From Paludibacteraceae bacterium (GTDB lineage: Bacteria > Bacteroidota > Bacteroidia > Bacteroidales > Paludibacteraceae), in NCBI GenBank assembly GCA_942493025.1, contig OW818663.1, forward strand, positions 2,258 through 66,257: a stretch of DNA of 64,000 nt. The letters run 5' to 3'. A program made the translations under genes and the position numbers. Numbering within the stretch: position 1 is the stretch's first letter; every line of letters begins with the position of its first letter. A model generated the notes under the pieces. The model was not told the origin of the DNA and did no database searches. It saw nothing but the letters and a program-made list of their open reading frames with translations. Below, piece by piece: positions 57,527 to 64,000 of the stretch.

Positions 57527-57725
57527 AAAGATATTTTTAATATTTGCAGAAATAATTTTTTATTCGGCTAAACTAATATACTTTTGTATTAGCAATAATG
57601 ATAATGTTTTTGTTTTGATAAAAAAAACACAGTTCTTGTTTTTAGTTCTCTGTAAATGAGTAGGTTCTGTTGTAGATCGAAATTCAAATCTAATGTTGTT
57701 GCTTCTGACCCTAAATCACGCTCGT

Positions 57726-58736
57726 ATGAATAAACCACAAATAACCATCAAGGATATTGGACGCGCTCTCCATATTTCACCCTCCACGGTTTCTCGCGCG
57801 CTTAAGAATCATCCCGATATAAGCCAGTCGACAAAAGATGCCGTAAATAAATATGCCAAAGATTTTAATTATAAGCCTAACACACTGGCTTTGAGCTTAC
57901 GTACCAGTAAGAATAATACGATTGGCGTAATTGTTCCCGAAATAAATAACTACTTTTTTTCATCTGTTCTCTCCGGTATTGAGGAAATAGCCAACGAAGG
58001 TGATTTTAATGTTATTTTATGTCAATCAAGTGAAAATTATGAAAAAGAAGTTAGAAATACTAAAGCCCTTGTCGCAACCCGGGTTTCGGGTGTTTTAGCG
58101 TCTTTGTGTAAACATACCACCAATTACGACCATTTTCAGGAAATCATAGAAAGTGATATTCCATTGGTGTTTTTCGACCGGATCTGTATCGGTATTATTA
58201 CCGACCGTGTGGTGGTAGATGATTACGCAGGCGCTTTTGCAGCTGTTGAGTATTTAATTCAAAGCGGTTGCAAGCGAATTGCGTTTTATAGTTCCCCTTT
58301 TCATTTGGAAATTTCTAAAAATAGAAAAAACGGATACCTCGATGCACTGCGGAAATATCGGATACCAGTTGATGAATCATTGATCAGGGTATGCGATACG
58401 CGTGAGGAGGCTATCATTATTACGCCCGAAATTCTTGACAGACCGGACAGACCCGATGGTTTTTTTGCGATTAATGACCATTGTGCTGCCGGAATTTTGT
58501 ATGCCGTAAAACTGGCTAAGTTGCGTGTGCCGGAAGATATAGCTATTTTCGGTTTCTCGGATGGCGAACTGGCTAAGGCCTGCGATCCATTATTAAGTAC
58601 GGTTGAGCAACATGGCTATGAAATGGGAAAAAATGCAGCTAAGCTTCTTCTCGACAAGATTAATGGGATTACTCACGGACAATATACAAATAAAATAGTA
58701 AAAACGAATCTAATTATCAGAGGAACAACTAAATAG
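57726..58736 (+). CDS. LacI-family transcriptional regulator (MalR-like; likely start 57726)
   Basis: ITIKDIGRALHISPSTVSRAL HTH, YKPN, IGVIVP, VFFDR, VPEDIAIFGF. Confidence 0.95.
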   Translation: MNKPQITIKDIGRALHISPSTVSRALKNHPDISQSTKDAVNKYAKDFNYKPNTLALSLRTSKNNTIGVIVPEINNYFFSSVLSGIEEIANEGDFNVILCQSSENYEKEVRNTKALVATRVSGVLASLCKHTTNYDHFQEIIESDIPLVFFDRICIGIITDRVVVDDYAGAFAAVEYLIQSGCKRIAFYSSPFHLEISKNRKNGYLDALRKYRIPVDESLIRVCDTREEAIIITPEILDRPDRPDGFFAINDHCAAGILYAVKLAKLRVPEDIAIFGFSDGELAKACDPLLSTVEQHGYEMGKNAAKLLLDKINGITHGQYTNKIVKTNLIIRGTTK

Positions 58737-58762: not shown

Positions 58763-60277
58763 ATGAAACCAAAATTATCATTTACTCAAATCTGGAATAT
58801 GAGTTTCGGATTTTTAGGAATTCAGTTTGGATTTGCATTACAAAACGCCAATACAAGTCGCATTTTCGAAACTTTAGGTGCTGATGTCGATAAAATTCCA
58901 TTATTGTGGATTGCAGCTCCTGTTACAGGTTTGATTGTCCAACCGATTATCGGACATTGGAGTGATAAAACCTGGAATCGTTTTGGACGGAGGAAGCCAT
59001 TTTTCCTAATGGGTGCCATTTTAGCTTCTTTGGCGCTGTTTGTTATGCCAAATTCATCTGCTTTATGGATGGCTGCAGGCATGTTGTGGATTATGGATGC
59101 TTCCATCAATGTTTCTATGGAGCCATTCAGGGCATTTGTAGGTGATATGCTTCCATCCGAGCAACGCACTTTGGGATTTTCGATGCAGAGCTTTTTTATT
59201 GGTATTGGTGCTGTTGCAGGTTCTGTATTGCCCTATATACTTGCTAATTGGGTTGGTATTTCGAATGTACCTGTGGGCGATGCTCTGATTCCGGATACGG
59301 TAAAATGGTCTTTTTATTTGGGTGGATGTGTATTTATTTTGACGATACTTGTTACTGTGTTAAGTACTAAGGAATATTCGCCAAACGAATTGCTTGAATT
59401 TGAAATAAATGATAAGAATGAAACCGTAAATAAGGACTTGCTATTGCAACTGCCTTCCAGTCGTTTTTCAATTGCCGGAATCATATTTGTTATTTTGAGT
59501 GTTATTAGTTTAGCGTCAATATTCTCTTTTTCGCTCGATAAACAACTGTATATTTTAAGTGGAATTTTACTCCTTATTGCACTTCTGTTTCTGCTGGTAG
59601 GTGAAATGCGAAGACGAGAAAAGGACAATGATTTAGTGGAAGTTATGACCGACTTAATGAATATGCCTAAAACAATGATTCAATTGGCAGTTGTTCAATT
59701 CTTTACATGGTTAGCATTGTTTTCTATGTGGATCTATACCACTCCGTCGGTTACTGCTTATCATTTTGGAGCGACCGATAAAATGTCGGAAGCATACAAT
59801 ACGGGTGCAAACTGGGTGGGTGTTTTGTTTGGAGCCTATAGTCTTTTTGCTGCAGCAGTAGCCTTTATTTTACCTGTTTTGGCTCGTCGGATTTCACGCA
59901 AAGCAACCCATTTACTCGCGTTAATGCTGGGTGGTTTGGGATTAATATCTATCTATTTTTTCAAAAACCCCGATTATCTCATCATTAGTATGTTTGGAGT
60001 TGGAGTAGCGTGGGCAAGTATCCTTTCTATGCCATATGCTATGTTGACAAGTGCTTTGCCGGCTCGCAAAATGGGGATTTATATGGGGATTTTTAATTTT
60101 TTCATAGTTTTGCCGCAAATATTAGCAGCTACAATTCTTGGAAGTATTACGAAACACCTTTTCGATGGAAATTCAATATATACTATTGTATTTGGAGGTT
60201 GCTCCATGATTTTAGCCGGAATACTTACACTTTGGGTAACCGATATTGATGATCCATTTAATAAAGCAAATAAATAA
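58763..60277 (+). CDS. MFS sugar transporter (maltose/sucrose GPH-like, SLC45 type)
   Basis: NMSFGFLGIQFGF, QPIIGHWSD, GRRKPF, MEPFRAFVGD, VQFFTWLALF, GIFNFFIVLPQ. Confidence 0.92.
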   Translation: MKPKLSFTQIWNMSFGFLGIQFGFALQNANTSRIFETLGADVDKIPLLWIAAPVTGLIVQPIIGHWSDKTWNRFGRRKPFFLMGAILASLALFVMPNSSALWMAAGMLWIMDASINVSMEPFRAFVGDMLPSEQRTLGFSMQSFFIGIGAVAGSVLPYILANWVGISNVPVGDALIPDTVKWSFYLGGCVFILTILVTVLSTKEYSPNELLEFEINDKNETVNKDLLLQLPSSRFSIAGIIFVILSVISLASIFSFSLDKQLYILSGILLLIALLFLLVGEMRRREKDNDLVEVMTDLMNMPKTMIQLAVVQFFTWLALFSMWIYTTPSVTAYHFGATDKMSEAYNTGANWVGVLFGAYSLFAAAVAFILPVLARRISRKATHLLALMLGGLGLISIYFFKNPDYLIISMFGVGVAWASILSMPYAMLTSALPARKMGIYMGIFNFFIVLPQILAATILGSITKHLFDGNSIYTIVFGGCSMILAGILTLWVTDIDDPFNKANK

Positions 60278-60319
60278 TGCTTTTCTGTCAATAAATCACA
60301 ACTTGAAATTCTTAATCAT

Positions 60320-62626
60320 ATGAATAAATATTTACAAACCGACCCCTGGTCTATTGTCGAAGAGGGATTTCATTCCGACCGGCAATTGGCTTCCGAGAGT
60401 ATTTTTAGTCTTGGTAACGGTCATATGGGTCAGCGTGCCAATTTTGAAGAGTTTTATTCGGGTGAAACCATGCTGGGTTCCTACATTGCCGGTATTTATT
60501 ATCCCGAAAGAGCAGAGCGGGGGAATTGGAAAAATGGATATTCGGAGACGAATGATAAGATAATCAATGCCCCTAACTGGACTAGTATTATTGTGCGATT
60601 GAATGATGACCAACTGGATGTAAGTACATGGGACGTTCAGAATTTCAAGCGGGTGTTGAATATGCACGAAGGTTATCTGGAAAGGACTTTCGAAGCGATC
60701 TCACAAAAAGGACATAAAATTCAGGTTTCGGTGAAACGATTTTTAAGCATGGCCGAATCGGAGGTGGGTGCTATAAGTTATTCGGTAAAATCAATTAACT
60801 ACGAAGGGCGCATTTCATTTATGCCACTGATAGATGCTGATGTAAGAAACCACCTCACAAATTATAATGAACCATTCTGGAATGTGCTGCAAATAAAAAC
60901 CGATCAGGATGTGTCGCACTTATGGGCACAAACCCGTCGCATCGATTTTCATGTTTGCTGCGCGCAAACTTTTGTTTTTTACAAAAATAATGAACTTCTT
61001 AATACCATTCCAACAAAGATAGAGAAAGAAAAAGCAGCGGGCTACAGTATTGGTACCGATGTTCGGGTGGGTGATACCGTTTGCATAAATAAATATGTAG
61101 CGGTTTTGAGTTCGTTGAATCACCCTTACGATGAACTTACCGATAGAGCCAGAACGCTTGCCCGTCAAGCAAAAACGAAAGGGTGGAATAAGTTATTCGA
61201 AGAGCACGCTGCCGTTTGGGCGGAGAAATGGCTGCATTCCGATATTATTATTGAAGGTGATGTTGAATCGCAACAGGCCATCCGATTTGCAATTTTTCAA
61301 CTAAATCAAACCTACGATGGGAATGATGCCCGTTTAAATATTAGTCCTAAGGGTTTTACCGGTGAAAAATATGCCGGTGCCACCCGTTGGGATACGGAGG
61401 CAATGTGTATCCCGTTTTATTTGTGCACATCCGTTCAAAGTGTGTCGAAGAATCTGCTGCTGTATCGTTACCGACATTTACCCAAAGCCATTCAGAATGC
61501 CGAAAAACTTGGATTTACAAATGGTGCGGCTCTGTTCCCGATTGCTACATTCAATGGTGTAGAAAGTTTTAATGATTGGGAGTTGACTTTTGAGGAAGTG
61601 CATAGGAATGGTATAATTGCTTATGCCATTAATGATTATGTTAGTTATACCGGTGATGAAAACTATTTGGCTGAGTATGGGCTTAAAGTGTTGATTGCCA
61701 TATCCCGTTTCTGGTGTCAGCGGGTAAATATATCTTCCGAAAAGCAGAAATATGTCATTTTAGGCGTTACTGGTCCTAATATGTACGAAAATAATGTGAA
61801 TAATAACTGGTTCACCAACTATATTGCAGTATGGTGTCTTCAATATACTATTGATTGTATTGAAAAAGTAAAAAAGAACAATTTCAGGGTATTCGAAGAT
61901 CTTACTCAGGAGATACACTTGCATAATGATGAGCTTTTTCAATGGAAAGATATTATTGAAAATATGTATCTGCCTGAAAACAAGACTTTAGGTGTTTTTG
62001 TACAACAAGATGGTTTCTTTGACAAAACTCTGATGCCGGCAGCTGAAATTTCGGATGCGCAGTTACCGGTAAATCAGCATTGGACATGGGATAAAATCCT
62101 TCGTTCGTCGGTCATTAAGCAAGCCGATGTAGTACATGGATTGTATTTTTTCGAAACTGATTTTGAGACAGAAACAATACGAAAGAATTTTGAATTTTAC
62201 GAACCGCTGACTGTTCATGAGTCATCGCTTTCGCCGGGAATACATTCCATTGTGGCCAGTAAAATTGGAAACAAGCAAAAAGCCTATGAGTTGTATCTGC
62301 GTACAGCGCGTATCGATTTGGATGATTACAATAATGAAGTGGCTGAAGGATTGCATATTACCAGTATGGCCGGCACCTGGCTGAGTATTGTAAAAGGATT
62401 TGGCGGAATGCGGGTAAAGGATGATATGCTGCAGTTAAATCCACAAATTCCCGAAAAATGGAATGCGTTTGCCTTTAATATCGTGTTTCGCGAGAATCAA
62501 TTGAGCGTCAAGATTGAAAAGAAGCAAATTCTTATACAGAATATTAAAGGTAGTGGCATTGATCTGTTGGTGAATAATAAACGCGTTCACATAAAAGCCG
62601 AAAGTCAGGAGAAAATAATCATTTAA
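60320..62626 (+). CDS. GH65 maltose-phosphorylase-family protein (Met at the catalytic-acid position)
   Basis: ESIFSLGNG, GQRANFEE, PKGFTGEKY, WDTE, EEVHRNG, KQAD, HESSLSP; GPNMYENN instead of GP(N/D)EYENN. Confidence 0.92.
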   Translation: MNKYLQTDPWSIVEEGFHSDRQLASESIFSLGNGHMGQRANFEEFYSGETMLGSYIAGIYYPERAERGNWKNGYSETNDKIINAPNWTSIIVRLNDDQLDVSTWDVQNFKRVLNMHEGYLERTFEAISQKGHKIQVSVKRFLSMAESEVGAISYSVKSINYEGRISFMPLIDADVRNHLTNYNEPFWNVLQIKTDQDVSHLWAQTRRIDFHVCCAQTFVFYKNNELLNTIPTKIEKEKAAGYSIGTDVRVGDTVCINKYVAVLSSLNHPYDELTDRARTLARQAKTKGWNKLFEEHAAVWAEKWLHSDIIIEGDVESQQAIRFAIFQLNQTYDGNDARLNISPKGFTGEKYAGATRWDTEAMCIPFYLCTSVQSVSKNLLLYRYRHLPKAIQNAEKLGFTNGAALFPIATFNGVESFNDWELTFEEVHRNGIIAYAINDYVSYTGDENYLAEYGLKVLIAISRFWCQRVNISSEKQKYVILGVTGPNMYENNVNNNWFTNYIAVWCLQYTIDCIEKVKKNNFRVFEDLTQEIHLHNDELFQWKDIIENMYLPENKTLGVFVQQDGFFDKTLMPAAEISDAQLPVNQHWTWDKILRSSVIKQADVVHGLYFFETDFETETIRKNFEFYEPLTVHESSLSPGIHSIVASKIGNKQKAYELYLRTARIDLDDYNNEVAEGLHITSMAGTWLSIVKGFGGMRVKDDMLQLNPQIPEKWNAFAFNIVFRENQLSVKIEKKQILIQNIKGSGIDLLVNNKRVHIKAESQEKIII

Positions 62627-62648: not shown

Positions 62649-64000
62649 ATGAAAAAGATATTTCTGCTCATTATCGTCGCGGTTTGTGCCTTTCAACTAC
62701 AGGCAAAACCGGCGGCATGGGTGCAACGTGTCGAGCCAACTTATTGGTGGACGAATATGCAACAATCCGAATTTCAAATAATGTTGTATGGTGCCGATAT
62801 TGCTTCGGCTGATGTTTCGGTGAACTATGCAGGGCTTACCATATCACGTAAGGAATTGACAGATAATCACAATTATGTTTTTCTATATTTGACAGTTGCG
62901 AAAGAAGCACTTGCCGGAAAATTCAATATTGAATTGAAAAAAGGAAATAAAAAGCAATTCATTTCCTATGAATTGAAACAAAGACTTGAGGGCTCAGCTT
63001 CACGAAAAAGTTTTACCGAGGCCGATGCCATTTATTTGCTTATGCCCGACCGTTTTGCAAATGGAAATCAGGCCAATGATTCGGTTCCTAATTATCATCA
63101 GGGGGTTTGTCGTGAAGTGACCGGAGCGCGGCACGGTGGTGATATCGAAGGAATTATATCTAAGGTTCCTTACATTGCCGACCTGGGTGCTACTGCTTTG
63201 TGGACGACTCCGCTTTTTGATAATAATGATAGCAATTATTCATACCATCATTACGCTTGCTCTGATTATTACAAAATTGATCCGCGTTTTGGAAAAAATG
63301 AGGATTACGCACGACTTTCAGAAACCTGCCATGCCAACGGTTTGAAAATGATTATCGATGTAGTGCCCAACCATTGCGGCGGTTCCCATTGGTGGATGAA
63401 AGATGTGCCTGCAAAAGACTGGTTCAATACATGGTCAACTTACACTTCGTCTAATTACCGGATTGCTGCATGGACTGATCCGCATGCTTCGGATGTTGAT
63501 AAACAACGCTTGACGAATGGTTGGTTTGCTCCCAATATGCCCGACTTGAACTTACAAAATCCATTGTTGTTTGACTATTTACGGCAGGTTTATACCTTTT
63601 GGATTGAAACAGCCAATATTGATGGTATACGGGTGGATACTTATCCTTACAATGATTTGAAAACGGCTGCACGGTTTATTGAGGCCATTCGGAGTGAATA
63701 TCCAAACATGAATGTAGTAGGGGAGTGCTGGGTAAAAACGCCTGCCGAGATTGCCTATTTCCAGTCGGGGAACAATAATAAAGATGGCTTTGATTCCCGC
63801 TTAACGAGCGTGATGGATTTTTGTTTGAAGGATGTGTTTGCTGCAGCATTCAATGAGCAGGATAGCTGGGATGGTGGTATGGCTCGATTCTATGCCCACT
63901 ATGCGCAGGATTTTGTGTATGCTAATCCGAATATGATTATGAATTTTTTGGATAATCACGACATCGATCGTTTTTCTACGGCTGTCAATCGTGATGTTCA
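62649..64000 (+). CDS. Second SusA-like GH13, partial (runs off the window; absent from the supplied ORF track)
   Basis: ATG at 62649 read by hand: MKKIFLLIIVAVCAFQLQA signal, RVEPTYWW, DAIYLLMPDRFANG, RHGGDIEG, IDVVPNH, DGIRVDTYPY, GECW, DNHD. Confidence 0.92.
   Translation, partial: MKKIFLLIIVAVCAFQLQAKPAAWVQRVEPTYWWTNMQQSEFQIMLYGADIASADVSVNYAGLTISRKELTDNHNYVFLYLTVAKEALAGKFNIELKKGNKKQFISYELKQRLEGSASRKSFTEADAIYLLMPDRFANGNQANDSVPNYHQGVCREVTGARHGGDIEGIISKVPYIADLGATALWTTPLFDNNDSNYSYHHYACSDYYKIDPRFGKNEDYARLSETCHANGLKMIIDVVPNHCGGSHWWMKDVPAKDWFNTWSTYTSSNYRIAAWTDPHASDVDKQRLTNGWFAPNMPDLNLQNPLLFDYLRQVYTFWIETANIDGIRVDTYPYNDLKTAARFIEAIRSEYPNMNVVGECWVKTPAEIAYFQSGNNNKDGFDSRLTSVMDFCLKDVFAAAFNEQDSWDGGMARFYAHYAQDFVYANPNMIMNFLDNHDIDRFSTAVNRDV

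Follow-up and report, generated by a model that had tools for sequence, protein, structure and literature searches.

Among the closest described systems to the gene reported here is Lactobacillus (Levilactobacillus) brevis maltose phosphorylase (structure 1H54; EC 2.4.1.8), a three-domain enzyme of glycoside hydrolase family 65 (GH65). A 2024 review states that the general acid, Glu487 in the L. brevis maltose phosphorylase and Glu483 in CsKP, is conserved in every enzyme of GH65, and reports GH65 acid mutants to be inactive; the functional roles of the acid, of the HNE and MVI motifs and of related positions used below were taken from the same source (PMC11442529). De Beul et al. (2021), who analyzed the family as a whole, filtered out unanalysed 59 CAZy GH65 sequences that, like the proteins described here, lack the acid, leaving 1953 (PMC8537180). 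The ordinary maltose phosphorylase locus of Bacteroidales has the gene order LacI-MFS-pgmB-GH65-GH13, as seen in two complete genomes, where pgmB encodes beta-phosphoglucomutase. Here we describe a full-length maltose phosphorylase homolog without the general acid, encoded in a stretch of 64,000 nt from a Paludibacteraceae bacterium (GCA_942493025.1, contig OW818663.1, positions 2,258 to 66,257; in the following called the window), together with the clade of Paludibacter proteins to which it belongs and a shortened form of the gene in other species of the genus.

The gene (60320..62626, plus strand) encodes a protein of 768 amino acids without internal stops. PF03636, PF03632 and PF03633, the N-terminal, catalytic and C-terminal domains, were each matched over their full length by Pfam, and sequence and fold profile place the protein within GH65. 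It scores 1037.9 bits on NCBIfam model NF010380 (cut-off 838) and 204.8 bits on the kojibiose hydrolase model (cut-off 800). The best solved relative is 1H54 (E-value 2e-203 over residues 2-733 in the HMMER alignment), with which all three domains can be aligned end to end. No signal peptide was found in the protein. The motifs RWDTEAM, KQAD and HESSLS are present and the reading frame is intact, all as described in an earlier reading of the letters alone (in the following called the sequence-only reading).

Codon 488 (61781..61783, plus strand) is ATG within cct aat atg tac gaa (P-N-M-Y-E). In the alignment with 1H54, GVTGPNMYENN stands over GVTGADEYENN, and after rebuilding the L. brevis numbering, Glu487 lies opposite Met488. 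The methionine that the sequence-only reading had placed at the acid position in VTGPN-M-YENN is therefore confirmed. A sequencing or assembly error was rejected as its cause: a change from ATG to GAR takes two base changes, ATG recurs in independent assemblies at 97-98% identity, and the missing acid is a trait of the whole clade.

A homolog search over 5.8 billion proteins yielded at least 120 clusters at 69-97% identity, mostly of 768 amino acids, and all position counts for the clade given below refer to the query plus 120 homologs of at least 69% identity (n=121). Position 488 is occupied by Met in 82 of these, followed by Ile (15), Thr (8), Leu (7), Gln (3), Glu (2), Ser (2) and Val (2), while the flanking G-P-N and Y-E are invariant. 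Glu, the general acid by which GH65 enzymes are recognized, is thus absent from 119 of 121 members. All 29 ordinary Bacteroidales relatives that were read, drawn from an even sample of the order (48-56% identity), keep the acid motif GPNEYENN, their other motif being GSTYWDTEA(Y/F). A maximum-likelihood tree groups the acid-less sequences in a single clade nested among the ordinary Bacteroidales enzymes; the stem of this clade is long, and its sister is a long-branched sequence that retains Glu. At 90% identity, the clade divides into more than 115 distinct clusters of full-length sequences, and the named genomes bearing its members are Paludibacter or Paludibacteraceae metagenome-assembled genomes. 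To find a relocated acid, we screened for positions at which the clade conserves a residue other than the canonical one; this gave no new conserved carboxylate, D63E being the only such change that involves one.

The gene is maintained by strong selection. We calculated the ratio of non-synonymous to synonymous substitution (omega) by the pairwise Nei-Gojobori method for nine locus pairs with unsaturated synonymous divergence (dS), many other pairs being saturated at synonymous sites. Omega was 0.02-0.06, equal to or lower than the values for MFS, LacI, GH13, SusC and SusD of the same pairs, and no stops or frameshifts were found in the 28 full-length loci. A decaying pseudogene was rejected on the basis of these omega values. 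Loss of an essential catalytic residue thus coincides with purifying selection, the combination by which a pseudoenzyme is operationally defined. The proposal of the sequence-only reading that homologs with a replaced Glu might form one clade under purifying selection was borne out.

The missing acid is one of several changes in the active site. As canonical reference we used 37 maltose phosphorylases including that of L. brevis, with a mean pairwise identity of 55% compared to 84% within the clade. We found 17 positions that are at least 90% conserved in the canonical enzymes but different in the clade. Seven of them (D63E, T65A, V67R/H, W69N, P75S, Y77T and F78N) lie in codons 63-79 (60506..60556, plus strand), which encode the loop of the N-terminal domain that reaches the active site and, in the L. 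brevis enzyme, forms part of it (PMC8537180). This rebuilt loop is conserved in all full-length members of the clade. Three changes, G342S, G352A/S and Y356R, adjoin the phosphate and -1 residues. Codon 356 (CGT, Arg; 61385..61387, plus strand) replaces the platform residue beside the scissile bond, Tyr357 in L. brevis and Phe342 in CsKP; of the 121 clade members, 117 have Arg at position 356 and 4 have Ser, and the canonical enzymes have Tyr in 37 of 37. The maltose-recognition residues in codons 408-422 (61541..61585, plus strand) have changed from MV..HNE..I to IA..FND..L and vary within the clade. The +1 motifs of maltose phosphorylases, HNE in loop 3 and MVI at positions 408, 409 and 422, are thus lacking: the window protein has FND, the first residue of this triplet is H, Y, L, F or Q across the clade, and MVI has become (V/I/L)(A/S)(M/L/F...). 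The remaining changes are C416S beside HNE, A432I, the replacement of Glu at 488, and Y498F. On balance, the +1 subsite has lost three aromatic residues (W69N, Y77T, F78N), and its charge has shifted by two to three units towards positive (Glu488 to Met, Tyr356 to Arg, Val67 to Arg or His).

The 130 positions invariant in the canonical set give a complementary view: the clade keeps 102, 2 are changed and fixed, and 26 are variable. Changed or variable sites are over-represented among the functional residues defined in the literature (9 of 16, compared to 19 of 114 other positions; Fisher p = 0.0012). The variable sites include position 488 together with the His of HNE and the three MVI positions, two phosphate ligands, K344 (K/N/R/C/S) and Y351 (Y/F/S), and the -1 Lys. 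Invariant among 115 database sequences are W357, D358, E360, Q601, H633, E634, S635, S636 and H679. The -1 glucose-binding residues shared with 1H54 (Trp, Asp, Lys, Gln) are present, with W357, D358 and Q601 invariant and position 600 Lys or Arg, and the phosphate site (Lys, Tyr, Ser-Ser, His) is complete in the window protein (K344, Y351, S635, S636, H679). Among the genome loci that were read, L054 encodes the most divergent full-length member: of its five phosphate ligands three are replaced (K344A, Y351M, S636A), while R356 persists along with the -1 pocket and the rebuilt loop. What the clade conserves of the former active site is thus a core made up of the glucose pocket, Arg356 and the new loop, and not the machinery of phosphorolysis.

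Features of two other kinds of GH65 protein are lacking as well. The catalytic base Glu that replaces Ser-Ser in GH65 hydrolases of the kojibiose hydrolase type is absent, HESSLS being retained. In the GH65 glycosyltransferase of the apramycin A5PS type, a His replaces the Tyr of the phosphate site, making room for the nucleotide (PMC11442529); in the clade, residue 351 is Tyr, Phe or Ser, but never His.

A small subclade, nested deep in the clade (P0069, P0087, P0085 and P0086; locus L072 8001-10307), carries Ser356, Ser351 and Glu408, and its residue 488 is Glu in two members and Ser in two. Its operon context is unchanged and still lacks pgmB. Given this nested position, Glu has been regained in a background that lost Arg356, and the return of Glu only where Arg356 has become Ser fits an electrostatic coupling of both sites.

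The second difference from the ordinary system concerns the operon. The gene of the MFS sugar transporter, which shares the operon (58763..60277, plus strand), ends 42 bp before the GH65 gene, and the spacer (60278..60319), which is the slot of pgmB in ordinary Bacteroidales loci, cannot accommodate a pgmB gene. This gap had been pointed out in the sequence-only reading, which also stated that pgmB commonly lies between MFS and GH65 in Bacteroidota maltose clusters, as is the case in the ordinary Bacteroidales loci. Upstream lies the gene of a LacI-family regulator (57693..58736, plus strand), 82-98% identical across all related loci. A GH13 SusA-like enzyme gene with a signal peptide (62649..63998, plus strand) begins 22 bp past the GH65 gene and continues beyond the window edge, and a divergent susC/D/E/F-GH13 operon occupies the opposite strand. 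Compared to the ordinary order, the Paludibacter operon is thus the same operon minus pgmB. By phylogeny the ordinary operon is the direct ancestor, with the same gene order, regulator and flanking susC/D, but it differs in GPNEYENN, mostly GSTYWDTEAY, and a frequent pgmB; the Paludibacter clade, on its long stem, lost both the acid and pgmB.

We called pgmB by the beta-phosphoglucomutase model TIGR01990 (cut-off 189.4 bits). None exceeded the cut-off in the genome of the window (one contig, 99.97% complete; best score 74.7 bits) or in 30 further clade genomes (best score 108.9 bits), whereas a pgmB exceeded it in 49 of the 69 Bacteroidales genomes of the order-wide sample that encode an ordinary maltose phosphorylase (49/69 versus 0/31; p = 1e-12). 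In roughly 43 of the 49 genomes having both genes, pgmB lies less than 1 kb from the GH65 gene, usually immediately upstream, as read from the coordinates. The other 20 ordinary genomes are G008, G033, G036, G046, G052, G055, G078, G097, G116, G127, G129, G132, G154, G156, G176, G208, G225, G247, G260 and G271. Several of these encode an HAD protein at 125-140 bits, which might be a divergent beta-phosphoglucomutase, and in G033 the adjacent MFS protein is unusually long (599 amino acids). The search of the window's genome also gave no second canonical GH65 of the maltose phosphorylase type. Its sole other GH65 is a secreted protein of 678 amino acids that keeps the acid (SDEW) and resembles the kojibiose hydrolase type (G000:C1:1515398-1516276; L002 574-2610). 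The same genome has two GH77 4-alpha-glucanotransferase genes and one GT35 glucan phosphorylase gene, the predicted products of which make up a maltodextrin route giving alpha-glucose 1-phosphate, for which the beta-mutase is not needed. The absence of pgmB from the clade genomes and of a canonical enzyme from the window's genome, two points that the sequence-only reading had proposed to check, are thus both confirmed.

A further indication of a role beyond catalysis comes from species that keep only part of the gene. Among the first 31 loci, three had a GH65 open reading frame (ORF) of only 330-342 codons, with GH13 directly after. Extending the search to all 102 species genomes of the genus, we found 31 with the full-length gene (62-100% identity), ~31 with the N-terminal part only, and 40 without the gene. 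The part that persists as a stand-alone ORF in these ~31 other Paludibacter species corresponds to the beta-sandwich at the N-terminus plus the helical linker, residues 1 to ~335 of the window protein (60320..61324, plus strand). Short-form genomes were assigned by E-value and alignment length, with loci including L084-L103, L063, L065 and L067; they cover residues 1 to ~300-343, with open frames of 292-363 amino acids in all but one and an internal stop in only three. In all 23 loci that were read, 20 of them fetched later, the short ORF of 287-347 amino acids occupies the same operon slot, and the order is LacI-MFS-GH65N-GH13 wherever the flanks are present. The short ORFs terminate right past the helical linker, ahead of the barrel. 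No full-length copy was found elsewhere in the three short-form genomes searched for one. In addition, ~85 metagenomic clusters of 303-367 amino acids, many on long contigs, match PF03636 only. The short ORFs are monophyletic and widespread and are embedded in long contigs, flanked by MFS and GH13; assembly fragments and independent recent deletions were therefore rejected as their origin. In public annotation the short proteins appear as “hypothetical protein” or “maltose phosphorylase”. One complete 3,685,504-bp genome of the genus (G332; locus L088 at G332:C1:3632500-3641600) also has the short form, with a readable ORF of 331 amino acids, though the genome search had counted one internal TAA, and with no GH13 gene within 4 kb after it.

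A tree of the N-terminal domain shows the short forms as monophyletic and sister to the full-length acid-less group. The two slowest-evolving short forms carry N69, S75 and T77 of the clade type and not the canonical W69, P75 and Y77, which indicates that the deletion of the barrel hit an already remodelled protein. The active-site loop, strongly conserved in full-length proteins, is free to vary in sequence and length in the short forms. Purifying selection persists in the short forms: of four close pairs, three gave an omega of 0.04-0.10 and one of 0.17, and in simulations of neutral drift to the observed divergence, which ignored insertions and deletions, the frame stayed open in only 1%, 0.1% and 0.1% of trials. 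For the older short-form divergences, selection might conceivably act on nothing more than an open frame that lets the downstream gene be expressed. The trees of GH13 and LacI do not separate short-form from full-length loci, which points to recombination of the locus between species; the number of truncation events is accordingly taken only from the tree of the N-terminal domain.

Considering these results together, we regard the maltose phosphorylase reaction as very unlikely for the window protein, because the acid is missing, published acid mutants are inactive and the maltose-recognition residues have changed, and also because the product would be unusable without the beta-mutase and the phosphate site is eroding in some lineages. 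The explanation we favor, at about even confidence, is that the protein is a former maltose phosphorylase, now catalytically dead, that would be kept as a non-catalytic ligand-binding or regulatory protein on the cytoplasmic side of the starch operon. A non-catalytic role is favored because half of the species that retain the gene do without the barrel, because the N-terminal part is selected alone, and because the relaxed sites are the catalytic ones. The sequence-only reading had offered a non-catalytic protein or a changed reaction. As a pair these options are supported, and the short form at the same locus tilts the choice towards the non-catalytic one.

The comparisons show that pgmB was lost from the LacI-MFS-pgmB-GH65-GH13 operon in the ancestor of a Paludibacter clade. 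The acid Glu gave way to a variable, mostly hydrophobic residue and the Tyr at the scissile bond to Arg, along with a rebuilding of the +1 maltose subsite. The -1 glucose pocket (W357, D358, K/R600, Q601) was kept, with the protein staying under very strong purifying selection. In a sister lineage, the barrel and C-terminal domain were deleted, and the beta-sandwich and linker (~330 amino acids) persist under selection in the same operon slot. In the favored explanation, the N-terminal part would have a function independent of catalysis. In full-length proteins, the former pocket, more open and more positive, may bind a ligand of the glucosyl type, which could be anionic (a glucose phosphate, for example), and thereby tune this N-terminal function. 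Maltodextrin carbon would be handled by GH77 and GT35, with no need for beta-phosphoglucomutase.

Three observations weigh against this explanation. The barrel of the full-length proteins is very strongly constrained, with the rebuilt loop and Arg356 nearly fixed, which also fits a new and precise enzymatic specificity. The 20 ordinary-type genomes listed above also lack a TIGR01990-grade pgmB, and Glu was confirmed in the eight whose locus was read, so the absence of pgmB alone is no proof of inactivity. Finally, the short forms evolve ~6 times faster than the N-terminal domain of full-length proteins, and their function may therefore be weaker or different.

A more specific proposal, which we put forward tentatively, is that the phosphorylase has turned into a sensor. 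The N-terminal module would act autonomously, for example as a partner of LacI or of another operon product, and the acid-less barrel, in which the glucose pocket is intact and the +1 pocket newly positive in charge, would be its ligand-sensing domain. The ligand could be a glucose phosphate or another anionic glucoside, and species with only the N-terminal part would run the module without ligand control.

New chemistry is the main alternative, in our view less probable. The protein would act without a general acid on an alpha-glucosyl compound that already has a good, anionic leaving group (alpha-glucose 1-phosphate, for example, or NDP-glucose). This group would be held by Arg356 and Arg/His67, and the nucleophile site, which is retained, would be the place from which phosphate or water attacks. 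Plant myrosinase offers a parallel, being a GH1 enzyme that works without the acid/base Glu since its aglycone leaves readily. In line with this proposal, nearly fixed changes have made the +1 pocket more positive by two to three charges, the loop is conserved in all full-length members and the -1 pocket is invariant, as are S635, S636, H633 and H679 in most members; the omega of the barrel is very low, and the only members with Glu488 have S356 in place of Arg356, which fits electrostatic coupling. However, position 488 drifts among M, I, L, T, V, Q, S and E, K344 and Y351 vary, and the lineage of L054 has lost three of its five phosphate ligands. Phosphorolysis would give beta-glucose 1-phosphate, but none of the 31 clade genomes has a recognizable mutase for it; about half of the species with the gene can dispense with the barrel, and the neighborhood, unchanged save for the loss of pgmB, suggests neither a substrate nor a downstream pathway.

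We consider it improbable that the protein is still a phosphorylase of maltose or another alpha-glucobiose with a different proton donor, for instance Glu490 or Arg356. In its favor, Glu490 does not vary across the clade, the window protein has preserved the -1 subsite and most of the phosphate site, and the operon is one of maltose catabolism. But Glu490, which the sequence-only reading had named as a candidate for the catalytic position, corresponds to Glu489 of the L. brevis enzyme; it is an ancestral residue also present in active enzymes and no novelty of the clade. GH65 acid mutants are reported to be inactive (PMC11442529). HNE and MVI are, moreover, changed or variable, and there is no beta-phosphoglucomutase for the product. 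Least probable is a recently inactivated, functionless gene on its way to being lost: although the gene is absent from 40 of 102 genus genomes and shortened in ~31, with active-site residues eroding, the low omega holds over pairs with dS from 0.2 to >1.5, the 28 full-length loci are free of stops and frameshifts, the clade holds more than 115 full-length clusters, and even the short form is under purifying selection.

An AlphaFold2 model of the window protein, built from a shallow alignment of 33 sequences, reached a mean pLDDT of 71 and fell below 50 exactly in the active-site loops; it was used for secondary structure only, the geometry of Arg356, Met488 and Glu490 not being readable from it.

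The locus as a whole is a mosaic. In L057 (and also L059), the GH65, LacI and GH13 proteins are 94-98% identical to those of the window, whereas MFS is 60%, SusC 69% and SusD 55% identical, a contrast which indicates that parts of the locus were replaced by recombination. Two MFS types occur in the genus, of ~435-460 and ~505-530 amino acids, and both GH65 forms occur with both. A specific partnership between the acid-less GH65 protein and the MFS transporter is weakened by this pairing of both forms with both types, and by a GH65 protein 97% identical to that of the window adjoining an MFS only 60% identical. Among the roles suggested in the sequence-only reading (sugar sensor, scaffold or transporter partner), the last has lost ground. 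Variants of the neighborhood include a GH9 gene (cellulase family, CelD_N domain) inserted between the GH65 and GH13 genes (L041 12505-14991; also L043 and L044) and a small gene for a “23S rRNA intervening sequence protein” (PF05635) between LacI and MFS (L072 6081-6494, L073 98-511).

Outside this clade, 9 of the 144 nearest representatives at 50% identity that cover the site also lack Glu (P0130, P0144, P0145, P0148, P0152, P0177, P0198, P0212 and P0228). All nine are degenerate in the -1 (WD) or phosphate (SS, KQ) motifs as well, whereas the Paludibacter clade keeps its -1 pocket along with a rebuilt and conserved +1 pocket. Loss of catalysis thus seems, judging from these motifs, to recur in the maltose phosphorylase branch of GH65. 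In GH18 chitinase-like lectins such as YKL-40, the catalytic Glu is replaced by a non-acidic residue, the sugar groove is kept and the protein has a conserved non-catalytic role. By analogy, such lectins may serve as a model for the acid-less GH65 protein, but they differ in fold and family and are eukaryotic and secreted.

In our literature search, we found no reports of GH65 pseudoenzymes, of a function of a Paludibacter GH65 or of stand-alone GH65 N-terminal domains. The existence of acid-less GH65 sequences was known before, but they had been left unstudied; the family consisting of the N-terminal domain only, at the operon slot of the phosphorylase, is a new finding. The statement that the acid is universal in the family contrasts with a large, well-sampled and strongly conserved clade that lacks it. 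If the sensor proposal is true, this would be the first functional GH65 pseudo-phosphorylase described and the first role for a lone GH65 N-terminal domain. The operon is defined, and the ordinary ancestor and the descendant with deleted domains can be compared within one genus, which makes the role of a dead phosphorylase directly testable. Annotation pipelines give the label “maltose phosphorylase” or “GH65 protein” to full-length and N-terminal-only proteins alike; for Paludibacter, metabolic reconstructions and counts of carbohydrate-active enzymes in metagenomes would consequently infer a maltose phosphorolysis that very probably does not exist.

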